From the NCBI GenBank assembly GCA_027039485.1, contig JALWDZ010000016.1, forward strand, positions 1 to 62,517: 62,517 nucleotides of DNA. The letters run 5' to 3'. Below the pieces are notes generated by a model. That model was not told the origin of the DNA, searched no databases, and was given only the letters and a program-made list of their open reading frames with translations. Shown piece after piece: positions 108 to 15,469 of this stretch. Each line of letters opens with the position of its first letter. Position 1 is the stretch's first letter. This stretch comes from Candidatus Shapirobacteria bacterium. GTDB taxonomy: Bacteria; Patescibacteriota; Microgenomatia; UBA12405; UBA6130. Made by a program: the position numbers and the translations under genes.

Positions 108-1772
108 ATGGCAAATTACCGCTGGCATTTGTTGACGAAGACAATTATTGGTGCCGAAAATCGCCAAGAACTAATAAAAACCCTCCTTCGTAATCGGGGG
201 TTGGAAAACGATAAGGCTTTCTTTTCGCCTCTCCATCCGGGTAAATTTTCTCTTGCTGATCTTGGGGTCGATAACCAGATGGCCGAGAAAAGTTATGCCC
301 GGCTGAATGAGGCCCGGCGGCGGAAAGAAGAAATCGTAGTTTTCGGCGATTACGATGTTGATGGTTTTGTTTCTACAGCTTTGGTTTGGGAAAATTTTTA
401 TCACCACGGATGGCATATTTTGCCAGCTTTACCGCACCGTTTACGAGACGGTTACGGCTTGCGCCCTGAGACAGTCCATCGCCTAAAAGACCAATATCCC
501 CGCCTTAAACTTTTATTGACGGTCGATAACGGCATCAGCGCTTTTGCGGCTGTCAAAGAAGCTAAAAAGTTGGGCCTAGATGTAATTGTTCTCGATCACC
601 ATCTTCGTTTGGGCAAGCAAAAGTTAGCCGCCGATGCCATTATCCATTCAGAGATGGTCTCCGCTGGCGGCTTGGCTTGGTTTTGGCTTCGCCATTGGTT
701 CCAGCCTGATTTGGGCCTTGCCGCCCTTTCGACTATTTCTGATGTTATGCCTTTGCGGGGAGTGAACCGTTCTCTGGTAAAATTTGGCCTGCCGATTTTG
801 GCGGCTACCAAGCGGGTTGGTTTGCGCCAGCTTTTCGAACGGGCTGGGGTGCGTTTTCCTCTCGACACTTATCAGGTGGGTTTTATTATTGCTCCCCGCC
901 TGAATGCTTTTGGGCGCATTGCCGAGCCTTTAGACGCTTTGCGCCTGCTATGCACCCAAAGGTTACCCCGGGGATCAGCATTAGCCCATTTAGCCAATGA
1001 GATAAATAGCCAGCGCCAACAGATGGTTGTCAATGGGCTGGAAAAGGCCCGGCAACAAATTGGCGAACCAACGGAGAAACTATTGGTGGTAGCCGACAAA
1101 GGCTACCATCGAGGCATTTTGGGTTTAATTTCGGCCCGGTTGCTAGAAACTTTTGCCCGGCCAGTTTTGGCAATTCAAATAGGCGAAGAAGTGTCTCATG
1201 GATCGGCCCGATCGGTAGATGGCGTTGATATTACCCGCCTTTTACAGCGAGCGGGCGATTTGCTCTTGGAAGTGGGCGGTCATGAAAAAGCAGCCGGTTT
1301 TAGCCTCCTTACGAAAAACCTGGCGCGTTTTCGCCGGACGGTACAAGAGGTAGCCGCAAATGAGATCGACGAAAAATTTTTGCGCCTAGAAAAGAAAGTT
1401 GACTGTCGCCTCAAGGGTGAAATCATTGACCTAGAACTGGCTAAATTAATTGAGGCAATGGCCCCGTTTGGAGAAGGGAACCCCCAGCCGTTATTTTGGT
1501 GGTCGGCGCGGGTGGCTAGTGTGGAAACAGTGGGACAAAAGAGGCAGCACCTTAAATTACAGCTCTTTGACCCTCAAGTTCCTTTGGAGAAGAGGCGCTA
1601 TTTGAAAACTTTGGGTTTTGGCTTGGGCGATAGGGCGGCTAATATCATCCCCGGTGACACTTTAGATATTCTTTTTACTCCTAAAGTCGATCGTTGGCAG
1701 CAGCGGGAAACGCTAACGCTTTACATTCGCGACTTACGGTTATCAAAGAAACAACTAATAACAAACAACTAA
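108..1772 (+). CDS. recJ: Single-stranded-DNA-specific exonuclease RecJ (DHH/DHHA1 family)
   Basis: 554-aa ORF with DHH-family motifs in RecJ order: GDYDVDG, TVDNG, VLDHH, and C-terminal GGHEKAAGF (DHHA1). Confidence 0.9.
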   Translation: MANYRWHLLTKTIIGAENRQELIKTLLRNRGLENDKAFFSPLHPGKFSLADLGVDNQMAEKSYARLNEARRRKEEIVVFGDYDVDGFVSTALVWENFYHHGWHILPALPHRLRDGYGLRPETVHRLKDQYPRLKLLLTVDNGISAFAAVKEAKKLGLDVIVLDHHLRLGKQKLAADAIIHSEMVSAGGLAWFWLRHWFQPDLGLAALSTISDVMPLRGVNRSLVKFGLPILAATKRVGLRQLFERAGVRFPLDTYQVGFIIAPRLNAFGRIAEPLDALRLLCTQRLPRGSALAHLANEINSQRQQMVVNGLEKARQQIGEPTEKLLVVADKGYHRGILGLISARLLETFARPVLAIQIGEEVSHGSARSVDGVDITRLLQRAGDLLLEVGGHEKAAGFSLLTKNLARFRRTVQEVAANEIDEKFLRLEKKVDCRLKGEIIDLELAKLIEAMAPFGEGNPQPLFWWSARVASVETVGQKRQHLKLQLFDPQVPLEKRRYLKTLGFGLGDRAANIIPGDTLDILFTPKVDRWQQRETLTLYIRDLRLSKKQLITNN

Positions 1773-1787
1773 CAACAAACAACAGAG

Positions 1788-2102
1788 TGGAACTAGGAAC
1801 TAGGAGCTAGGAACTAGGAAAAATAAGCACTAAATCCCAAACCACAAATTTCAAACAAATTCTAATTACCAAAATCCTAAATCCTAAACTCTAAACAATG
1901 TTCAAATGACCAAAATTCAAATGTTCAAAACATTTTTGTCATCTTTCTTTTGTTTTGGTCATTTAGTCATTTGGTAATTTGGTTATTGTTTAGGATTTAG
2001 GTCATTAGGATTTAGGATTTGTTTGGTTATTGGTGCTTGCCTGCCTGCGCAGGCAGGGAATTTGGAATTTGCCCCGATTCCGCCAGCTGGCGGACGTCGG
2101 GG
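1788..2102. repeat. Long low-complexity imperfect hairpin element, copy A, with appended GC-rich hairpin modules
   Basis: The left arm (…aatcctaaatcctaaactctaaacaatgttcaaatgaccaaaattcaaatg…) is mirrored by the right arm (…catttggtaatttggttattgtttaggatttagg…). It begins with a 31-nt string (1788-1818) identical to 20505-20535. It ends with an 18-nt perfect palindrome cctgcctgcgcaggcagg (2040-2057) and the hairpin ccccga..ccgccagctggcgg..tcgggg (2072-2102). Confidence 0.75.
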
Positions 2103-2159
2103 CAAGGTACTTAGAATTTTGTTTGTTTTATGGTTGTTTTCGGTGGTAAAATTGCTCAT

Positions 2160-3521
2160 ATGAAACGCATCTGGGTTGAACAAATAAAAGATCGCTTGGG
2201 CAAAAAAGTTCTCCTTAAGGGCTGGGTGATAGCCAAAAGGGACCACGGCGGGGTAGTTTTTTTAGATCTCCAAGACCGAAGCGGACAAGTCCAGCTGGTT
2301 GGCGGCAAAACCCTGAGCCAATACAATGAAAGCGATGTTTTAGCAGTTGTGGGGACAGTCAAAAAACGTGATCCGCGTTTTGTGAATCCTAAAATAACTA
2401 CCGGAAAGTATGAAATTGCTGTCGAGAAAATTGACCGTTTGGCAAAAAGCGAGCCGTTACCGTTTGATATCCGGGGTGATGGCTATGATATTAAAGAGGA
2501 GGTTCGCTTGCGTTATCGCTATTTGGATCTCCGCCGGCCCCGATTACGGCGCAATCTTCAATTGCGCCATCAGGTAGAACAGCTTTTTCGCCAGCAACTT
2601 TCGCAGCGGGATTTTTGGGAGATAGAGACTCCTTATTTAAGCAAGGCAACGCCAGAGGGAGCCCGGGATTTTTTGGTTCCGTCGCGCCTCCAGCCAGGTA
2701 AATTTTACGCCCTCCCCCAGTCGCCGCAGCAATATAAGCAGTTGTTGATGGTTGCCGGGGTGGAAAGATATTTTCAAATTGTACGTTGTTTTCGGGATGA
2801 GGATTTGCGAGCTGACCGCCAATTTGAATTTACCCAGGTAGATGTTGAGATGTCGTTTGTTACCCGCGATGATGTTTTGGCGACCATTGAAGAAGTAGTT
2901 GTGGCGGTGATGAAAGCTTTAGGGCGAAAGATTAGTCAAGTGCCATTCCCGCGCATTTCCTATCAAGAGGCAATGCGCCGTTTTGGCAGTGATAAATTTG
3001 ATTTGCGCAAGAATAAAAAAAGTGACGAACTGGCTTTTGCCTGGGTAGTTGATTTTCCTCTTTTCGAAAAGACCGAAGACCGAGATATTAGTCCGGTCCA
3101 TCATCCTTTTACCGCACCCCATCCTGAGGACATTCCTCTTTTAGATAAGCAGCCTTTACGGGTGCGTTCTTGGCAATACGACTTGGTTTGTAATGGCCAC
3201 GAAGTGGCGGGGGGAAGCATTCGAATTACTGATCCGCAATTGCAAGCCAAAATTTTTCGCATTTTAGGCCATTCCCAGAAAGAAATCCAAACTAAGTTTG
3301 GGCACCTTTTAAATGCTTTTCGTTATGGTGTTCCTCCTCATGGAGGCATTGCTTTTGGGCTGGATCGCTTATTGGCCATTTTGGCCGGCGAGGATAAAAT
3401 TCGCGAGGTTATTGCTTTTCCAATGACCGCTAAAGGGCGGACGGCAGTTATGGATGCCCCTTCGCCAGTTAGCCAAGCGCAACTCCGCGAGTTAGGGCTT
3501 CAATTAACTAAAAAGTCCTAA
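2160..3521 (+). CDS. aspS: Aspartyl-tRNA synthetase, bacterial-type class II core lacking the GAD insertion domain
   Basis: N-terminal OB fold; motif 2 FRDEDLRADRQFEFTQVDVEMSF; motif 3 GGIAFGLDRL. The start is taken as ATG 2160 (MKRIWVEQ); the track ORF opens at 2130. About 453 aa, against about 590 aa for GAD-containing bacterial AspRS. Confidence 0.9.
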   Translation: MKRIWVEQIKDRLGKKVLLKGWVIAKRDHGGVVFLDLQDRSGQVQLVGGKTLSQYNESDVLAVVGTVKKRDPRFVNPKITTGKYEIAVEKIDRLAKSEPLPFDIRGDGYDIKEEVRLRYRYLDLRRPRLRRNLQLRHQVEQLFRQQLSQRDFWEIETPYLSKATPEGARDFLVPSRLQPGKFYALPQSPQQYKQLLMVAGVERYFQIVRCFRDEDLRADRQFEFTQVDVEMSFVTRDDVLATIEEVVVAVMKALGRKISQVPFPRISYQEAMRRFGSDKFDLRKNKKSDELAFAWVVDFPLFEKTEDRDISPVHHPFTAPHPEDIPLLDKQPLRVRSWQYDLVCNGHEVAGGSIRITDPQLQAKIFRILGHSQKEIQTKFGHLLNAFRYGVPPHGGIAFGLDRLLAILAGEDKIREVIAFPMTAKGRTAVMDAPSPVSQAQLRELGLQLTKKS

Positions 3522-4387
3522 TGATAGGAAGAATATTAGCCTTGGTTTTTCTAGGCCTTAGCTGGTTTCCCCAAAGACATTATTCCCAACCTCATTGGCA
3601 ACCAGCCCCTTTAGCTCTTTCCCGCCAACAAATTGATGGCCATTTAAAAGCAAAAGCTTATCTTTTAATGGATTACCGATCAGGCCAATGGCTGGTTGCC
3701 CATCACCCTCACCAAAAACTTTTGCCTGCTTCGCTAACAAAATTGGTTACCGCTTTGGTGGTGCGGCAATATTTTCCTCTTGACGAAAAGTTAGAAGTCA
3801 GCCGCCCGTATCAAGTTGGCCAAATAGCCCGCTTGCCGGCTGGCCATATTTTTCGGGTGAGAGACTTGCTGAAAGCGATGCTGATCCATTCTGCTAATGA
3901 TGCCGCTTTTGTTTTTGCTGATAGTTATCGGCAGCAAACTGGCAAAGATTTTGTGGGCTTAATGAACCAATGGCTTCGGGACCATGGGTTAACAGAAACT
4001 CATTTTGCTAATTTTGACGGCGAAGAAGACGCTGCCCACTATTCTACCGTGGCCGATTTAGCTAAAATTGGCCGACTTTTTCTAGCTGATGAGTTTTTAG
4101 CTAGCTTGGTAAAGCAAAAAGAAGCAATATTTTTCGACAGCCAGGGCCAGCGGTACGAGTTAGAAACTACCGACAAGCTCTTGGGCATGCCTGGTTTTCA
4201 AGGGGTAAAAACGGGCTGGACAGAAAAGGCCGGCGAATGCTTTTTGGCTTATTATGTTCCCAGCAAACAACCGGCTTTAATAAGTGTAGTTTTGCATAGT
4301 CCAGACCGATTTAAAGAGACGCAAGAATTGGTCAGTTGGCGGCATAATTTTACTTGGCAGGTGCCGCTTCCAGGAAGTCGGGGCTAA
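3521..4387 (+). CDS. D-alanyl-D-alanine carboxypeptidase (serine peptidase S11, PBP5-like)
   Basis: N-terminal hydrophobic segment; SxxK (ASLTKL), SxN (HSANDAA) and KTG (VKTGWT) boxes in canonical order. ATGA overlap with the aspS stop. Confidence 0.85.
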   Translation: MIGRILALVFLGLSWFPQRHYSQPHWQPAPLALSRQQIDGHLKAKAYLLMDYRSGQWLVAHHPHQKLLPASLTKLVTALVVRQYFPLDEKLEVSRPYQVGQIARLPAGHIFRVRDLLKAMLIHSANDAAFVFADSYRQQTGKDFVGLMNQWLRDHGLTETHFANFDGEEDAAHYSTVADLAKIGRLFLADEFLASLVKQKEAIFFDSQGQRYELETTDKLLGMPGFQGVKTGWTEKAGECFLAYYVPSKQPALISVVLHSPDRFKETQELVSWRHNFTWQVPLPGSRG

Positions 4388-5420
4388 TTGCTTCGACGTA
4401 ACCAACAAAGTTGTGGCTACCGGCAAAAACATAAATAGGCTTAAGAAAATTAGTGGCGTAATTGGGGTCAAGATAAGCAAGATAAATTTTGTGGATTTTT
4501 ATTGGCTCTTGGCTTGGGGCATAATTGGCATCAAGATTGGCAAGATGATAGTGCCCTTTTTGGACTTCTGCCCAGGCTTGAGCTAGAGGGAGAAACGGGT
4601 AGGTGGCATATTTTTCCTTATCTATTGTGAAGTGGACAAATTTAACCTCGACGACATTGCGACTGCCATTGCCACTGACCCAGATATTAATATTGGGGTC
4701 TTGCCAGTTGGGAGGGAGAAGGGGCCATTTGTCAATAGCTTGGCGGTGGAAGCTGACGCGGGCTAGATTAGCATCGGCAAGGGCGTGAGCCGGCCGGAGG
4801 CCTTGGGCAGTTAATTTATAAAAGGCCACATCACCAGGCTGGACGAGATCTAATGGCTTTCCAATTAAGTTTTTGAGGTAAGAATAGGCGGTATCTTGAA
4901 TTTGCTGTAAGTTTGGCGGCAAAAGTTGAGTCATTATTGTTTGGTCCTGCTGAAACGGATATTGGTAATGGAAATTGCCTGTCAAGGGGTTTATGGTCAG
5001 CGTTTCTCCGGTTTTTGCCTGGCGATAATAGAGAAGATTTTTGTTGGTTTGGCTTGGCGTTTGGCTAAAACCAAGCTTGCGGGCTAGCTCGTTAGCTTTA
5101 TCAAAAGCCAAAAGGCGGGATTGTTGAGCAATGACAAAGTAAACTCGCCCTTGGTTAGGCAACCGAGGAAGACCACCGCTAACGGTTTCTAGTTGGAATT
5201 TCTGGGGATGCACTTTAGGCTCTTGGAATTTGGTTCGGGGGAGGGTGCCAAAAGCAACATTAGGCGGCGGAGGAGCGGGAGGATGAGCCCGCCGCCAAGT
5301 TTGGTAAACTATTCCCCAGGTTACTCGAAAGAGCAAAAAGCCGACTAGTAGAAAGCCGCTGATTTTGATTGCCCGCCGTGTCCAAAAGGCAACGATTGTT
5401 AGATTGGGCCCGCTATCCAT
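4350..5420 (-). CDS. Hypothetical membrane-anchored protein
   Basis: 356-aa ORF with one N-terminal TM (ISGFLLVGFLLFRVTWGIVY) followed by a Pro-rich stretch. No family recognised. The 3' end overlaps the convergent dacA-like gene by 38 nt. Confidence 0.5.
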   Translation of the reverse strand: MDSGPNLTIVAFWTRRAIKISGFLLVGFLLFRVTWGIVYQTWRRAHPPAPPPPNVAFGTLPRTKFQEPKVHPQKFQLETVSGGLPRLPNQGRVYFVIAQQSRLLAFDKANELARKLGFSQTPSQTNKNLLYYRQAKTGETLTINPLTGNFHYQYPFQQDQTIMTQLLPPNLQQIQDTAYSYLKNLIGKPLDLVQPGDVAFYKLTAQGLRPAHALADANLARVSFHRQAIDKWPLLPPNWQDPNINIWVSGNGSRNVVEVKFVHFTIDKEKYATYPFLPLAQAWAEVQKGHYHLANLDANYAPSQEPIKIHKIYLAYLDPNYATNFLKPIYVFAGSHNFVGYVEAISPDFLEAAPAK

Positions 5421-5455
5421 TTATTTCAGTATAGCATTTAGGGTAAAATAGAAAA

Positions 5456-6745
5456 ATGAAGCCGGTTATTCTTTCTTTCCCGCGGACTATTTACCAATTA
5501 GAAGGCGAAAACTCTTTTCTTGATCCGTGGACATCGTTGAATACAAAAGTCACCTATCAGCACCTGCGCCGCGAAATACTTTTTGCCATTGCTAGAGACG
5601 GAGAGCGTTTTATTTTGCAAGAACCACCTTTAACAGAAAAAAATGTCCTGCGCCATTGGCTTCTAGTGCTTCCCCGGCGAGCCTATACTTTACCTAAGTA
5701 CCCCCACTTTCAACTTTGGTATTTGAGCAAATATTTTACTCCCACCTTAGCACTTTTGCCGAAAGAACAATTGTCCACTTTACCAATTATTATTCATGCT
5801 CTCCAGCAAGCAATTCTTAATTGGCAACGAGATCAAAATTTGCCAGGGCAATTCGTTTTTGGCATTAATGCGACCCCATTTGCCTTTATTAAAAGGAAAG
5901 ATGGCAGTTATTGGCCTGGTGGCCAATCAGTACGAGCGTTTCACCTCTCCTGTTTGCTTTTGCCAGGAAGGGAGTTGATGCAAAAAGAAGCGTTGGCGGA
6001 AAACCGCTTGGGGTTAGTTTACCCCTCTGATTTTGCCTTAAATATTTTAAAATTTTGGTTTCACCTTCCTAATTTGCATGGTTTTATTTTGGGCAATAAG
6101 CCTTACCGCTATCTGTTTACTCGCCGCGGTTTAGTGTTCAAATTTTCTGGTACTAGTAATGGGGGATTAAAGGAAATATTGGCTCTTTTGCGCCGTTTCG
6201 ATCAAATTGCTTACCAGGTGGAGCTTATCTTAATTCGCTCTATGTATAAAGAAAGTGAACATTTTTTGGAAAAGCTAGAAACACTTTTAATTGCTGCTGA
6301 TATAAATGCGTTGGAAAAAGCTCGCCGGCTCCACCTCCGTTTTACCGGCAATTCCCCCTTATTAGCTCTAGAAAAAATTTGGGCTGGCCTTCAAAAGCTT
6401 GATGTGGCTTATGGCCGCCGCCGGCAACTGGCGCCCCGTTTGCGGCGACAGTGGAAGCGGGTAACCTCAAGTTTGTTCCTCAATGACCAGAAAGAGCCGG
6501 CATCGCTGATCAATAATATCACGGTGGTGTTGCGGCCCGGCATGGGCTATGGTTATTTGCAAGAAGCAACCCGAAAAGAGCGCCGGGTTTGGATTATGCC
6601 TCTAGATACTCTCTCTCCCAAAGGGATTATCGAGGCGCGCGGCTTTTCCTTTTCCCGGATAATTACTCAGCACCAGCGGCCGGTTTGGCTCGAGCCTTTA
6701 AAGAAAGACATCAAAAGGCTACTTTTGCCACCAAGCGCTAGCTGA
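5456..6745 (+). CDS. Hypothetical protein with a possible degenerate HIT-like N-terminal region
   Basis: 429-aa ORF. RHWLLVLPRRAY and GGQSVRAFHLSCLLLPG resemble the HxLVIPK and HxHxHxx strands of the genuine HIT protein at 40964 (GHTLVIPKKHY / VPHAHIHLFP), but the histidine triad is mostly lost. This is a weak, by-eye similarity. Confidence 0.45.
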   Translation: MKPVILSFPRTIYQLEGENSFLDPWTSLNTKVTYQHLRREILFAIARDGERFILQEPPLTEKNVLRHWLLVLPRRAYTLPKYPHFQLWYLSKYFTPTLALLPKEQLSTLPIIIHALQQAILNWQRDQNLPGQFVFGINATPFAFIKRKDGSYWPGGQSVRAFHLSCLLLPGRELMQKEALAENRLGLVYPSDFALNILKFWFHLPNLHGFILGNKPYRYLFTRRGLVFKFSGTSNGGLKEILALLRRFDQIAYQVELILIRSMYKESEHFLEKLETLLIAADINALEKARRLHLRFTGNSPLLALEKIWAGLQKLDVAYGRRRQLAPRLRRQWKRVTSSLFLNDQKEPASLINNITVVLRPGMGYGYLQEATRKERRVWIMPLDTLSPKGIIEARGFSFSRIITQHQRPVWLEPLKKDIKRLLLPPSAS

Positions 6746-11228: not shown

Positions 11229-13616
11229 ATGATTCTAAAACCGCAATTAAGCGAAAATAAAATCAATATTTTGCCTCTCATTCCCTTGCGTAATGTGGTG
11301 CCTTTCCCCCACGTGGAGCTCAATCTAGTCTTTGGCCGACCACGGACAGTGGCTGCCTTGAATTCAGCTATGCAAGGCCCCAAAAAGGTGATTTTGGTGG
11401 CGCAAAAGAAGCCAGAACTAGAATCTGTCGGTTGGGACGATATCTACCATTTGGGAGTCTTAGCCGAGGTGCGCCAGGTTTTCCAAGCCGATGGCACTCT
11501 TCATGCAGTTGTCCAAGGATTGCGGCGGGTGGGGCTTTTGGAATTAGTCGCTGGTGATGAGTTTGACCAGGTGAAATTTGTGGAGTTGGAAGAAAAGCCT
11601 GATAATAGCCGAGAAGTCCAACTAAAGGCAGCCCATTTAGCCCGGGAATTGCGGCGAGCTTTTAGCCTGGGTAAAGGCCTGGAACCCCTTTTGATGCTCA
11701 AGTTAACCAGTGGTTTGCCTTTGCCAGAGCTGCTGGATCAGGCAAGTTTTGCCCTGGATGCTTCGGTGGCTGAAAAGCAAAAGTTATTGGAGACTCTTTC
11801 TTGGTCGCAACGCTTAGATCTCCTCATTGAATTATTGGGGCGGGAAATTCAGGTTTTGGAATTAGAACAAAAGATTGAGAAAAAGACACGGACCCGCTTT
11901 GAAGAGCATATGAAAAAGACGGTATTAGAGGAGAAAAAGAGAACTATCGAAGATGAGTTGAAAAGCTTAGGGGTGCGCGACAAGACCGATCCTTTGGCAG
12001 AATTGCGCCAGAAATTGCAAAAGGCTAAATTGCCGGCAGCGGTGCGCAAAAAAGCTAATTATGAGTTGAAACGCCTCCAGCAAATGCCGCCCTTTGCTCC
12101 CGAAGCAAGTTATATTCGTACCTATCTGGAAACTTTGGCGGCGTTGCCCTGGGAACCGGCTAAACAGAAGGCTATTTCTTTGAAAAAAGCAGCCCGGATT
12201 TTGAATCAAGACCATTATGGCTTGCGGGAGGTAAAAGCGCGGATTTTGGAATATTTGGCGGTGATGGAGTTGCGCAAGAAGGAGAAGCAGAAGAAGAGAA
12301 AGGGGCAAAAAGCGGAAAAAGGTCCGGCCAACATTCTTTGCTTTATTGGCCCGCCAGGGGTGGGGAAAACCTCATTGGGGCAATCTATTGCCCGGGCCCT
12401 GGGACGAAAGTTTGTCCGGGTTTCTTTGGGAGGCATTCGGGATGAAGCGGAAATCAAAGGGCACCGGCGCACCTATGTTGGGGCGATGCCGGGGCGAATT
12501 ATTCAGGGGATTAAAACCGCCGGAACTAAAAACTTGGTTTTTATGCTTGATGAAGTTGATAAAATTGGCACCGATTTCCGTGGCGATCCGGCGGCAGCTT
12601 TGTTGGAAGTTCTCGATCCCGAACAAAATAAGAACTTTTCTGACCATTATCTCGAAGTGCCTTACGATCTTTCCGACGTTTTCTTTATCTTGACCGGCAA
12701 TATGGTGGATACTATTCCGGCCGCCTTGCGCGACCGTTTAGAAATTATTCACTTTTCCAGCTATACGGCTGAGGAAAAATTACAGATTGCCAAAAAATAT
12801 TTAATCCCTAAGCAGTTGAAAAATCATGGCTTGGAGGGCTATAAAATTCACTTCCAAGATGACGCTCTCCGCCTAATTATCCAAGATTACACTTATGAAG
12901 CGGGGGTCCGTAATTTGGAGCGGGCGATTGCCAAAATTTGCCGCCGGCTGGCGCGGCGGATTGCCGAGAAGAAACCTTATCCGCGAGAGATAACTAAGAT
13001 GGTAGTGCGGCGCTTTTTGGGGCCGAAGGAATTTAACCATGCTTTAAGGGAGCGCAAAAGCGAGGTTGGGGTGGCGACTGGCCTGGCCTGGACTCAGGCG
13101 GGCGGGGAAATTCTTTTTGTAGAGGTTGCTCTGATGCCTGGTGATGGCAAGATTTATTTGACCGGAAAATTGGGAGAAGTGATGCAAGAGTCAGCCCGAG
13201 CGGCTATCTCCTATATTCGCAGCCATTGGCAAATGTTGGGGGTGAAGAAAAATTTCTTTAAAAATTTAGACATCCATATCCATGTTCCCGAAGGGGCGGT
13301 ACCTAAGGACGGGCCGTCGGCCGGAGTAACCATTGCCACTGCTTTATTATCGGCGTTGACTAAAAAGAAAGTGCGGGCTGATGTCGGAATGACGGGAGAA
13401 ATTACTTTGCGAGGGAAGGTTTTGGAAATTGGCGGAGTAAAGGAAAAGGTGTTGGCTGCCCACCGGGCCGGCTTGAAGACCATTATTTTGCCTAAGGCAA
13501 ACAAGAAGGATGTTAGCAAAATCCCAGCTAAGGTGCGCAAATCACTCCAGTTTATCTTTGTCGAAACCCTTGACCAGGTCTTCCAGATAGCGTTTACAAC
13601 CAGCCCAAAAGCATAA
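11229..13616 (+). CDS. lon: ATP-dependent Lon protease
   Basis: N-terminal LON domain, AAA+ Walker A GPPGVGKTS, and a proteolytic Ser-Lys dyad (PKDGPSAGVT … GGVKEKVLAA). Confidence 0.95.
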   Translation: MILKPQLSENKINILPLIPLRNVVPFPHVELNLVFGRPRTVAALNSAMQGPKKVILVAQKKPELESVGWDDIYHLGVLAEVRQVFQADGTLHAVVQGLRRVGLLELVAGDEFDQVKFVELEEKPDNSREVQLKAAHLARELRRAFSLGKGLEPLLMLKLTSGLPLPELLDQASFALDASVAEKQKLLETLSWSQRLDLLIELLGREIQVLELEQKIEKKTRTRFEEHMKKTVLEEKKRTIEDELKSLGVRDKTDPLAELRQKLQKAKLPAAVRKKANYELKRLQQMPPFAPEASYIRTYLETLAALPWEPAKQKAISLKKAARILNQDHYGLREVKARILEYLAVMELRKKEKQKKRKGQKAEKGPANILCFIGPPGVGKTSLGQSIARALGRKFVRVSLGGIRDEAEIKGHRRTYVGAMPGRIIQGIKTAGTKNLVFMLDEVDKIGTDFRGDPAAALLEVLDPEQNKNFSDHYLEVPYDLSDVFFILTGNMVDTIPAALRDRLEIIHFSSYTAEEKLQIAKKYLIPKQLKNHGLEGYKIHFQDDALRLIIQDYTYEAGVRNLERAIAKICRRLARRIAEKKPYPREITKMVVRRFLGPKEFNHALRERKSEVGVATGLAWTQAGGEILFVEVALMPGDGKIYLTGKLGEVMQESARAAISYIRSHWQMLGVKKNFFKNLDIHIHVPEGAVPKDGPSAGVTIATALLSALTKKKVRADVGMTGEITLRGKVLEIGGVKEKVLAAHRAGLKTIILPKANKKDVSKIPAKVRKSLQFIFVETLDQVFQIAFTTSPKA

Positions 13617-13631
13617 ATTTTGGCCAAAAAA

Positions 13632-13733
13632 AGAGCCTGAAGATTTACGAGAATAAAAAGAAGAAAAGAGTGGTTTTATGTTGCGCTCGTTGCAACGTGT
13701 CTTTTTCCTTTTTTATTCTCTACTTCAGGCTTT
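13632..13733. other. Long imperfect hairpin (about 100 nt) between lon and the small GC-rich ORF; possible bidirectional terminator or structured RNA
   Basis: agcctgaag…gagaataaaaag…aaaagag pairs with ctttttcc…tttttattctc…cttcaggct, with a small tip hairpin gttgc/gcaac. On the minus strand the hairpin is followed by a T7 run (13625-13631 on the plus strand is A7). Confidence 0.55.
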
Positions 13734-13857
13734 CTTGCACTTTTGACTCGAAGACTAAATCCACAAAGTGGATTTACTAAAAGAAACGACTGATAACGGA
13801 ACCAACCGTACCCTTTCGGGCCCCTCCTTGCTTGAGGTTTAAGATATTATTTTATTC

Positions 13858-14115
13858 TCACTCAATTGTTCCATGAAAAATCCGTCTGCCGTCGGGCATT
13901 TGCCAGTACCACTCCGACTGTTCGCCCTCTTGGACGAAATCGACCTTCTCGCCACGTCGCCGTGCAAGAGTAACTTCGCCAGGAATCCAGCGCGCGCCGT
14001 TTCGAAAATCGTCTACGTCTGACTGTGGCATCATGGCACCTACATCACGGCCTTGTTCGCCACCAAGGGCGTTAGCCAGCGCTGCAAAAGCAGCCATGAA
14101 ATCATCCCGCTCCAT
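13858..14115 (-). CDS. Hypothetical small acidic protein (85 aa), compositionally atypical
   Basis: Strong SD (AAGGAGGTG) 5 nt upstream of the ATG. Hand-counted G+C is about 56%, against about 45% in sampled neighbouring genes. No family recognised. Confidence 0.6.
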   Translation of the reverse strand: MERDDFMAAFAALANALGGEQGRDVGAMMPQSDVDDFRNGARWIPGEVTLARRRGEKVDFVQEGEQSEWYWQMPDGRRIFHGTIE

Positions 14116-14304
14116 CGAAACACCTCCTTTTAGATTTTAGATTATTTTTACTACCCCCCGAATGGATAGCTTTCTGAACACTATCGGGTAATGTCCAGGA
14201 AGCTACCCACTCGGGTAAGGAGGCGGTTTTGGGCTGACTGTAAAAGTGCAAGAATGTAACAAAAACAAATGTTGCACAGCCTTTTGTACTTATTTGTTTT
14301 TGTT
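14116..14304 (-). promoter_or_regulatory. Long structured 5' leader of the 85-aa ORF
   Basis: On the minus strand, in order: a perfect 13-bp 5'-terminal hairpin (14258-14270 / 14292-14304); a 13-nt arm (14242-14254) complementary to 13732-13744 in the 3' UTR; CCGCCTCCTTA (14216-14226), which is complementary to the SD (14123-14129); and a hairpin of about 59 nt (14157-14215). Confidence 0.5.
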
Positions 14305-14309
14305 GAGCA

Positions 14310-14338
14310 AGTATAACATACTATAGGTTGTTTTGCAA
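14310..14338 (-). promoter_or_regulatory. Sigma70-like promoter (TTGCAA-17-TATACT) reading towards the 85-aa ORF
   Basis: On the minus strand: TTGCAA at 14338-14333, an exact 17-nt spacer, and TATACT at 14315-14310. Confidence 0.5.
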
Positions 14339-14355
14339 CTCAAAGTGGGGATGGC

Positions 14356-14431
14356 TGGTGACCCCACCCGGATTCGAACCGGGGTTTTCGCCGTGAGAGG
14401 GCGATGTCCTAAACCGCTAGACGATGGGGCC
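14356..14431 (-). tRNA. tRNA-Glu (anticodon CUC), CCA encoded
   Basis: Manual cloverleaf: acceptor GGCCCCA/TGGGGTC, D stem GTCT/GGAC, anticodon arm TCGCC-CTCTCAC-GGCGA, 4-nt variable loop, T arm CCCGG-TTCGAAT-CCGGG, discriminator A, then CCA. 76 nt. Confidence 0.9.
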
Positions 14432-14486
14432 GGTGAATTATTTTAGCATAATGAGAGATGCGGCCGAGCTGGCAGCAAATAAAAAA

Positions 14487-14731
14487 GGAGCTAGGAATAA
14501 TAAATCCTAAATCCTAATGACCAAAATCCTAAACAAATCCAAAATTCAAATGATCAAATAACCAAAACAAAGGAAAAAGATAAAGAAAAAGAAATGTTTT
14601 GAACATTTGAATTTTGGTCATTTGGTAATTGTTTAGAATTTAGGATTTAGGATTTTGGTAATTAGAATTTATTTGTAATTTGGTGCTTGGAATTTGGAAT
14701 TTTCCTGTGTAGGCAGGGAATTTGGGATTTT
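14487..14731. repeat. Long low-complexity hairpin element, copy B
   Basis: aaatcctaaatcctaatgaccaaaatcctaaacaaatccaaaattcaaatg… is mirrored by …catttgaattttggtcatttggtaattgtttagaatttaggatttagg. About 90% identical to copy D over roughly 70 nt by eye. Ends with cctgtgtaggcaggg. Confidence 0.75.
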
Positions 14732-14752
14732 TCAAAATCAGTGTAATTTTGA

Positions 14753-15469
14753 ATGTTACAATTGGCTATGAAAAAAATCCGCTTAGTTTTGCGCCGTTGG
14801 TTCCATCCCCGCCTAAGCAATAAAACGGTTAAAGTAGGGAAAAAGAAACCTGCCCTCTTGTTTTACAATCCGCCACCTCAGCGGGCTTTTATCTTTGGCG
14901 CGGGGACAGGCTTTATTTTTTTGGGCCTCATCCTGGCCGTTATTTGGTATTTCCCCCTTTTGACTGCTTTCTGGCATTATAAATTTTCCCCGCCACCGTC
15001 GATACCGACAAACAAGAAAATTGCCAAAATTGACTACCAGAACTTTTTTATCTTTATCCCCAAGATCAAAGCTAAAGCAAAAGTTTTTGCCAACACCCCG
15101 GTAGACGACCGCCAAGTTTATATGAAAGTCCTGCACCAGGGAGTGGCCCATGCTAAGGGGACAAGCTTCCCTGGCCAAGGTGGGGTTATTTACCTTTTTG
15201 CCCATTCGACTAATAGCCCTTTTTACGCTACCCGGCTTAACGCTGTTTTCATGCTTCTCCATTATCTCCAGCCGGGCGATTTGGTGGTCATCTATTTTAG
15301 CGGCCGGCAGTATCGTTATCGGGTGGTGAAAAAATTGATTGTTAGCCCTCACGACGTCCAATACCTTCATTTCCGCCCTCTTGATGGCCGGGAAACTTTA
15401 ATTTTACAAACTTGTTATCCGCCGGGTACCACCTGGAAGCGCCTTCTTGTTTTTGCCACCAGAGTTTGA
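14753..15469 (+). CDS. Sortase family transpeptidase
   Basis: N-terminal TM; catalytic His (VIYLFAHS), TLxTC box (TLILQTCYP) and conserved Arg (RLLVFATR). An alternative start is at 14768. Confidence 0.85.
   Translation: MLQLAMKKIRLVLRRWFHPRLSNKTVKVGKKKPALLFYNPPPQRAFIFGAGTGFIFLGLILAVIWYFPLLTAFWHYKFSPPPSIPTNKKIAKIDYQNFFIFIPKIKAKAKVFANTPVDDRQVYMKVLHQGVAHAKGTSFPGQGGVIYLFAHSTNSPFYATRLNAVFMLLHYLQPGDLVVIYFSGRQYRYRVVKKLIVSPHDVQYLHFRPLDGRETLILQTCYPPGTTWKRLLVFATRV

Follow-up and report, generated by a model that had tools for sequence, protein, structure and literature searches.

To our knowledge, bacterial mRNAs whose 5′ and 3′ untranslated regions (UTRs) pair with each other amount to a handful of experimentally studied cases, namely hok, icaR and hbs. 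Loci of the hok type code for a small hydrophobic membrane toxin of about 50 amino acids or fewer with one transmembrane (TM) segment, and have a cis-encoded antisense RNA, made from a promoter of its own opposite the leader, and an overlapping mok-like leader open reading frame (ORF) on which translation of the toxin depends. In the Bacillus subtilis hbs mRNA, a 14-bp helix between the two UTRs modulates cleavage by ribonuclease (RNase) Y and hence stability (PMC5737220). In the Staphylococcus aureus icaR mRNA, pairing of the 3′ UTR with the Shine-Dalgarno (SD) sequence blocks initiation and creates an RNase III site (PMC3868564). Here we analyze a cassette that fills the 739 nt between lon and tRNA-Glu(CUC) in a stretch of 62,517 nt (contig JALWDZ010000016.1, hereafter the window) from Candidatus Shapirobacteria, a Microgenomates-like bacterium of the candidate phyla radiation (CPR). 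We know of almost nothing established on post-transcriptional control in CPR bacteria or on the acquisition of genes by their small genomes.

The cassette is probably, though by no means certainly, a moron-like autonomous mobile transcription unit whose mRNA would be protected at its ends and would repress its own translation. If so, it presents a 5′/3′-paired mRNA with comparative support, carried on a mobile cassette, in a CPR bacterium. The first-pass annotation, made from the letters alone, had listed on the minus strand an anti-SD, a 13-bp hairpin, a 13-nt bracketing repeat, a GAAA hairpin and a terminator beside the ORF and its promoter, and all of them are present where it placed them. 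From the tRNA gene towards lon the features are as follows.

14356-14431, minus strand (the strand of the cassette gene): tRNA-Glu(CUC), identified by ARAGORN and Rfam; its 3′ end is the insertion site.
14338-14310, minus strand: sigma-70-like promoter TTGCAA-17-TATACT, with a predicted transcription start near 14303.
14258-14270 / 14292-14304, minus strand: perfect 13-bp stem of the 5′-terminal hairpin, at the predicted 5′ end.
14242-14254, minus strand: 5′ arm of helix A, UUCUUGCACUUUU, a perfect 13-nt inverted repeat with 13732-13744.
14217-14225, minus strand: anti-SD CGCCUCCUU (CCUCCUU at 14223-14217), the 5′ strand of the SD clamp, where pairing can be extended to 9 bp.
14157-14215, minus strand: hairpin C, 59 nt, GAGUGGGUAGC...GCUAUCCAUUCGGG, the conserved leader hairpin inside the clamp.
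14121-14129, minus strand: SD sequence AAGGAGGUG (AAGGAGG at 14129-14123), the 3′ strand of the clamp.
13858-14115, minus strand: acidic ORF of 85 codons with an ATG start, the short Cys-less form of a small-protein family.
13823-13829, minus strand: SD-like AAGGAGG in the 3′ UTR, which could compete for the leader anti-SD; not conserved in loci L064 or L067.
13810-13821, minus strand: E1, a GAAA-tetraloop hairpin (GCCC-GAAA-GGGU) whose stems covary.
13788-13809, minus strand: E2, ACGG-loop-CCGU followed by UAUCAGUC, conserved in sequence in the window, L064, L067, L017, L020, L012 and L065.
13757-13775, minus strand: short hairpin AAAUCCAC-UUU-GUGGAUUU, a little 5′ of the 3′ arm of helix A, with equivalents in L064, L067 and L065.
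13732-13744, minus strand: 3′ arm of helix A, AAAAGUGCAAGAA, directly adjoining the terminator hairpin.
13626-13730, minus strand: terminator F, a hairpin of about 96 nt (13635-13730), GCCUGAAG...CUUCAGGC, plus a U run.
13596-13616, plus strand: last seven lon codons, TTSPKA*, common to L064 and unalignable to cassette-free relatives.
11229-13616, plus strand: lon.

The 85-aa ORF is the whole ORF content of the cassette. Terminator F is directed towards the end of lon, whose transcription it may stop as well as that of the cassette gene.

Lon homologues served to find syntenic relatives, which have the gene order ABC-Era-Lon-tRNA-Glu-sortase-CLIPPER-GreA-LysRS. They differ in the content of the interval from the lon stop to the tRNA-Glu 3′ end.

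L083 (Lon 87% identical): nothing; the tRNA end overlaps the lon stop.
L080 (Lon 82% identical): 37 nt.
L081/L082 (Lon 76% identical): 4 nt.
L078/L079 (Lon 91% identical): 770 nt with a different cassette.
Window (reference Lon): 739 nt with the studied cassette.
L064 (short lon fragment only): the studied cassette with one extra ORF.

Because the site is empty in L083, L080 and L081/L082 and holds a different cassette in L078/L079, the window cassette is, by this comparison, an insertion at the tRNA-Glu 3′ end. This bears out the earlier proposal of an acquired module at a tRNA 3′ end, and the cassette is not conserved at the junction throughout the lineage, as a resident gene would be. Otherwise it was found there only in L064, a fragment whose piece of the tRNA has the same sequence as in L080. 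The window and L064 have 91% nucleotide identity in the small ORF and 77% in the adjacent 62 nt of lon. Both share a lon C-terminal tail, T-S-x-K-A*, which is missing from the cassette-free relatives, and the right-hand junction probably lies within the last seven lon codons; no degenerate att repeat was found on the lon side of the window cassette.

The cassette of L078/L079 (L078 4789-5586), the nearest of the syntenic relatives, has no homology to that of the window. It has its own TATACT promoter and codes for a protein of 156 aa with a TM segment at the N terminus. On either side of this cassette the 3′ end of tRNA-Glu, GTTCGAATCCGGGTGGGGTCAC, is repeated perfectly and in direct orientation over 22-23 nt, the signature of site-specific integration. 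One copy of this repeat provides the last codons and the stop of lon in these two loci. The cassette protein of L078 had no match in Pfam, PHROGs, PADLOC, NCBIfam or PDB profiles.

Could the studied cassette nevertheless be an ordinary, vertically inherited gene of this lineage, with inverted repeats that arose by chance in A+T-rich intergenic DNA? Composition bears on this question. The ORF has 55.4% G+C against 45.4% in the window, within the top 2.6% of 258-nt segments, so the first-pass annotation was right to call it G+C-rich. As an argument for foreign origin, the figure does not stand: G+C at third codon positions (GC3) is 51% against 52% in lon, and the excess is confined to codon positions 1 and 2. 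Since GC3 equals that of lon, the excess reflects the amino-acid composition of a Gly/Ala/Arg/Asp/Glu-rich protein and is not a foreign-DNA signature. The native GC3, the L064 copy at the same junction and the frequency of single 13-nt inverted repeats in shuffled sequence (8%, see below) would all suit vertical descent. However, the empty or differently filled sites in relatives with such similar Lon proteins, and the recurrence of the same helices with compensatory changes in unrelated genomic contexts, make it the least credible of the explanations that we considered.

The 85-aa ORF is a real protein-coding gene. A word-indexed search found 13 close relatives of its product, and a hidden Markov model (HMM) search of 1.84 billion representatives found 181 clusters (50% identity) at E ≤ 1e-3, with 120 at E ≤ 1e-10, all from CPR bacteria or their phages. 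We fetched 67 loci, which came from metagenome-assembled genomes of CPR/Patescibacteria (Kaiser-, Zambryskii- and Saccharibacteria, Paceibacterota), metagenomes and two IMG/VR contigs. In nearly all of 63 loci the gene has a strong SD and begins with ATG, the start caller picking the candidate with the best SD. Between the window and L067, substitutions are distributed 8/8/41 over the three codon positions, with 33 synonymous and 13 nonsynonymous codon changes, a pattern that indicates purifying selection on the protein.

The members of the family are usually single-copy and range from 85 to 140 aa in length. They share the core IPGEVTLARR-G...F...W-W...H, including an invariant Arg-rich TLARR(R)G helix. 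The commonest form has about 135 aa and additional conserved cysteines (C-x3-C ... C-P-x-C-G-N); these long forms, of 113-143 aa, have four conserved cysteines, possibly zinc-binding, which the short form of the window lacks. AlphaFold2 models of the short form (fair; mean predicted local distance difference test, pLDDT, 79) and of the long form (confident; pLDDT 89, predicted template modelling score 0.79) both have three helices followed by a small beta-sheet, with three strands in the short form, and no TM segment. According to these models, the product is a soluble acidic alpha/beta protein without any toxin-like feature. Neither form matched Pfam, NCBIfam, PHROGs, PADLOC or PDB sequence profiles, and Foldseek searches of the PDB (both models) and BFVD (the short-form model only) gave nothing better than E = 0.2. 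The first-pass annotation had described a protein with no TM segment and of no recognised family, and these results agree with it.

Several large proteins of about 800-1700 aa (P0142, P0148, P0153, P0158 and others) match the family profile 9-11 times each. The matches cover only the C-terminal beta-hairpin segment (profile positions approximately 48-113), and the WYW-x-MPDG hairpin may be related to a repeat unit.

Family genes are found in varied, often mobile, surroundings. Some lie directly downstream of same-strand tRNA-Trp, tRNA-Arg or tmRNA genes. The L011 copy adjoins a large serine recombinase, the L010 copy (on an IMG/VR contig) lies 0.6 kb from a tyrosine integrase, and the L016 copy adjoins a Bro-N protein; no homologue other than those of L011 and L010 has a recombinase beside it. 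In L039 (2134-4943) a long-form member is the lone gene between the housekeeping genes adk (adenylate kinase) and secY. Among the first 12 loci fetched there were no conserved neighbour genes. In L033 the family gene is part of a tandem array, in a unit that has an 18-nt tRNA-Met repeat at either end. The homology between loci in differing genomic contexts spans the cassette from promoter to terminator, and thus the conserved module is the whole transcription unit.

The L033 array (1537-5817) can be described further. Its 3′-terminal tRNA-Met 18-mer, GTCCTGTCCCCGCTACCA, recurs at 1765, 3629 and 5800, and the cassettes between the copies have no integrases. One of them consists of a prepilin-like gene and the long-form family member; the next has an ORF of about 194 aa, HAD-hydrolase-like by eye only, and other ORFs.

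The RNA of the cassette is predicted to be strongly folded. A 701-nt transcript reaches -245 kcal/mol against -196 ± 8 in shuffles (z = -6.07), and its minimum-energy fold includes every pairing listed by the first-pass annotation. A perfect inverted repeat of at least 13 nt appears, however, in 8% of mononucleotide shuffles of the 1.1-kb A+T-rich region. Because such repeats taken singly are not rare, their reality is decided by conservation in homologous loci and not by the sequence of one locus.

How much of the fold is conserved? A leader HMM detected the same leader in L064, L065, L011, L016, L017 and L020, and in part in L012 and L001; the proteins encoded there are those most similar to the window's own, and there is no second copy of the leader within the window. 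When leader and 3′ UTR were folded independently in seven loci, one common plan was recovered, with helix A, helix B (in most loci), the anti-SD/SD clamp, hairpin C, E1, E2 and a long terminator in 5′ to 3′ order. Shuffles reached the observed covariation score in 0 of 500 cases for each of helix A, the clamp and hairpin C. By these comparisons the RNA architecture is conserved with covariation in related loci, and the long-range fold with SD sequestration, proposed from a single sequence, is upheld by compensatory changes in its homologues.

The individual elements contribute differently. Of the 27 pairs that RNAalifold predicts in hairpin C, 11 show compensatory changes on both sides. In this hairpin 93.6% of alignment cells are paired, whereas slid registers give 27-50%, and covarying stem segments occur together with others whose sequence is conserved (GUGGGUAGC/GCUAUCCAU). 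The clamp has 74% of cells paired, against 39-50% in slid registers, and its anti-SD changes in step with the sequence that flanks the SD on its 3′ side (window, CGCCUCCUU/AAGGAGGUG; L016, AUUUCUCC/GGAGAAAU; L020, UUCCUUC/GGAGGAA). For helix A the values are 65.5% against 37-46%. It is the top-scoring duplex between a 5′ segment and the 3′ UTR in six of nine loci, according to an ungapped duplex scan that we used instead of RNAduplex, which on long flanks pairs everything and was uninformative. Compensatory or register-shifted variants of helix A occur in L011 (CUCUUGCAC/GUGCAAGAG), L017 (UUUUUGCACG/CGUGCAAAAG) and L020 (UUUUUCUCUUGC/GCAAGAGAAAAG). The second 5′/3′ helix, B, is clear in L064 (CUACGGAAAGUU/AACUUUCCGUAG), L011 and L020. 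E1 changes on both sides of its stem (GCCC/GGGU in the window, ACUC/GAGU in L064, CGAC/GUCG in L017, CUUC/GAAG in L020, CUUGC/GCGAG in L065), and in terminator F the base of the stem is conserved while the inner stem has compensatory changes in L064, L067 and L011. The 5′ hairpin (z = -3.3 in the window) recurs by position: in seven of eight loci the interval from the predicted -10 box to helix A contains a hairpin, unrelated in sequence and with z from -1.6 to -5.0.

The promoter TTGCAA-17-TATACT at 14338-14310, present as annotated, is the sole sigma-70-like match in 13400-14800, where 2.3 matches are expected by chance, and so is not significant alone. L064 has TTGCAG-17-TATATT at the matching position, and other loci have TTGACTTT-17-TAnnnT. 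In L016, L066, L065 and L011 a CCTATAAC/CCTATAGC motif stands directly upstream of the conserved TTGACTTT -35 box, whereas the window and L064 are arranged differently, with CCTATA between the -35 and -10 boxes.

Since inverted repeats can also act in DNA, the repeats of helix A might be targets of a recombinase, sites of inversion, or the terminal inverted repeats that bound a mobile unit. The core of helix A is indeed conserved in sequence and not only in pairing, and L011 adjoins a serine recombinase. However, the homology across contexts runs from promoter to terminator, past the repeats, and the orientation of the gene relative to the leader is constant in every locus. The edges of the repeat and helix B change by compensation or register shift, which fits RNA pairing and not a site recognised by a protein. 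This explanation is therefore very unlikely.

A structured non-coding RNA with an incidental ORF is still less probable, and we give it hardly any credence. The very strong fold z-score, the conserved UTR elements and the absence of a Pfam match are what it would lead one to expect. In contrast, no element is conserved as widely as the ORF, which is represented by about 180 clusters and whose substitutions are biased to third positions, and L013-L015 and the long-form clades have the protein but not this RNA. A search of Rfam 15 at gathering and permissive thresholds passed only the tRNA, the next best matches having E of at least 0.04 and scores far below their gathering thresholds. The suggestion of the first-pass annotation that this may be an RNA element with a passenger ORF is thus not supported, the RNA architecture being found in one subclade of a much wider protein family. 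Scans of IMG/VR gave 10 matches to the hairpin C pattern (all chance, inside coding DNA), 58 to the E2 motif (about the chance expectation) and none to the helix A/B leader pattern.

Two further complementarities were observed in these sequences. An inverted repeat of 16/18 links the last lon codons (13593-13610, beyond the terminator) with 14227-14244, the part of the leader from which helix B is built in relatives. This repeat is probably a chance match, because it is seen in 14% of shuffles and is absent from L064. Complementarity between the SD and the 3′ UTR over all 55 distinct loci was not significant (p = 0.13). In L019, L021, L023 and L038, all of the long form, the first 20 nt or so after the stop contain a CGCUCCU-type motif complementary to the SD region, which covaries with the SD flank (AGGAGCG/CGCUCCU, AGGAGCA/UGCUCCU) and extends to a 14-nt match in L021. 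This hints at icaR-like pairing of 3′ UTR and SD in one long-form subclade.

How might such an mRNA behave? In the mechanism that we propose, the transcript would be made from the cassette's own promoter, and both of its ends would be buried in helices, the 5′ hairpin, helix A and the terminator converging on one junction. This would give protection from end-dependent RNases. The ribosome-binding site paired in the clamp would keep basal translation low, and the net prediction is a long-lived, poorly translated message. Translation would need the clamp to open, for which a trans-acting factor, RNA processing or temperature are candidate triggers, and the trans-acting factor could possibly be the Arg-rich small protein itself, bound to hairpin C.

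This last point may be taken further. The leader may be an operator or sensor, either bound at hairpin C or at the E motif by the Arg-rich protein, which would then autoregulate, or opened at the clamp by a ligand or by temperature. Together, the sequence-conserved segments of hairpin C and the invariant Arg-rich helix make autoregulatory binding an attractive hypothesis: the mixture of conserved and covarying segments is typical of protein or tertiary contacts, and the RNA module and the small gene travel together although the first ORF varies (see below). Against it stand the structure searches, which recognised no RNA-binding fold in the small protein, the absence of this leader from most family members, and L066, which keeps helix A without hairpin C. 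On balance we consider an operator or sensor unlikely, yet worth keeping in view; it would sharpen the explanation preferred here and not replace it.

Several observations weigh against the mobile, end-protected and self-repressed unit that we favour. No tRNA-derived direct repeat is present at the window or L064 cassette (best local score 17 against a shuffle mean of 15), and the 739 nt contain no integrase. The covariation sample comprises 7-9 sequences, with hand-registered alignments in the case of the clamp and of helix A. Helix A has an 8-bp core (UCUUGCAC/GUGCAAGA) that is nearly invariant, and covariation is seen only at its edges, so that the support for the core is conservation rather than covariation. 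Helix B is absent from the window copy. The RNA module is restricted to the subclade nearest the window, while most family members have other UTRs. No relatives of recognised function or fold were detected for the small protein, and the transcript ends and the stabilising and repressing effects are predictions from sequence.

Variants of the cassette show that the leader does not belong to the small gene alone. Unlike the window, L064, L065 and L011 have a variable first ORF between leader and small gene. In L064 (453-722) it codes for an acidic soluble protein of 89 aa, in L065 (331-579) for 82 aa that read as a two-TM protein, and in L011 (1562-2158) for about 198 aa, with a related fragment at L067 3-152. 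None of these products had a match in Pfam, PHROGs, PADLOC or NCBIfam. The clamp in these three loci sequesters the SD of the first ORF, and in L065 an E motif is found between the two ORFs. The same leader would thus control a variable first ORF in relatives, from which it appears that the RNA module acts at the level of the cassette and is not specific to the small protein. The window looks like a minimal version, with the leader fused straight to the small gene.

A more far-reaching interpretation can be drawn from these variants. Leader and 3′ UTR may form a portable RNA cradle with the small protein as its partner, cargo ORFs being slotted between the leader and the small gene, and the protein binding hairpin C or the E motif and gating translation of the whole cassette. 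We think this improbable. If true, it would be an undescribed mobile RNA-and-protein switch of post-transcriptional control, specific to CPR bacteria and their phages, perhaps with a role in conflict or immunity.

The two-TM product in L065 also recalls type I toxin-antitoxin systems. A hok-type addiction locus would produce a stable, folded-back and inert mRNA, release its toxin after processing and be controlled by an antisense RNA, and the first-pass annotation had proposed a toxin-like or addiction gene. The 5′-3′ fold-back with SD sequestration agrees with this, as does the compact unit with its own promoter and terminator on mobile DNA. However, the conserved product of 85-140 aa is soluble, acidic and alpha/beta, without TM segments, is under purifying selection in a widespread family, and is usually encoded in a single copy. 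Stop codons in the leaders of L064 and L065 break up the one ORF of the leader (TTG, 14251-14102), a crude scan found no sigma-70-like promoter on the plus strand in 13400-14800, and there was no match to a toxin or antitoxin RNA in Rfam or to PADLOC. The proposal of a toxin found no support, and we regard a hok-type system here as highly improbable.

One more repeat in the neighbourhood of the cassette lies between the divergent tRNA-Glu and sortase genes (window 14496-14673). It is an imperfect palindrome of about 175 nt with 25% G+C, built of AAATCCTAA-type units; its arms measure at most 35 nt, its core is perfect over 16 nt, and a stretch of 26 nt reaches 92%. The spacer of L083 at the same place is similarly A+T-rich and, by appearance, repeat-like.

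The locus offers three leads. The first is an unannotated small-protein family of about 180 clusters with a confidently predicted but unmatched fold. The second is a well-defined integration hotspot between tRNA-Glu and lon, with alleles that are empty, hold this cassette or hold another one, and the third is a compact RNA (about 680 nt, or about 420 nt minus the ORF) which is directly testable.

Among known systems, hok/sok resembles the cassette in the predicted pairing of the 5′ end with the 3′ end of its own mRNA, in the sequestration of the ribosome-binding site in cis, and in being a compact unit with its own promoter on mobile DNA. It differs in its product, a hydrophobic toxin of at most 50 aa in contrast to a soluble acidic protein of 85 aa. 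In the cassette an overlapping leader ORF is not conserved, the crude scan detected no antisense promoter, and neither sequence nor Rfam relates it to hok/sok. The hbs mRNA is similar in the length of its long-range helix (14 bp, against 13 bp in the cassette) and, like the cassette mRNA, codes for a small protein behind a structured leader with a strong SD. The gene, organism and sequences are unrelated, however; the cassette adds the predicted anti-SD clamp and conserved 3′-UTR hairpins. With icaR the cassette would share intramolecular control of translation via SD pairing and, judging from the related loci, conserved 3′-UTR elements. The icaR 3′ UTR itself pairs with the SD, whereas in the cassette the SD is predicted to pair with the upstream leader and the 3′ UTR with the far 5′ part of that leader.

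Morons and tRNA-targeted islets, such as tycheposon arrays (bioRxiv 10.1101/2020.12.28.424599), provide the likeness in DNA. They too insert autonomously as promoter, gene and terminator at the 3′ end of a tRNA gene and are present in some close relatives but not in others, and L078 and L033 have partial-tRNA repeats, in tandem in L033. The window cassette differs in having no flanking tRNA repeat or integrase, in its CPR host and in its size of approximately 0.74 kb, and its conserved RNA architecture has not been described for tycheposon-type elements or morons. The locus thus combines two known kinds, the mobile moron-like cassette and the mRNA clasped by its own 5′ and 3′ UTRs, around an uncharacterised protein in a poorly explored phylum.

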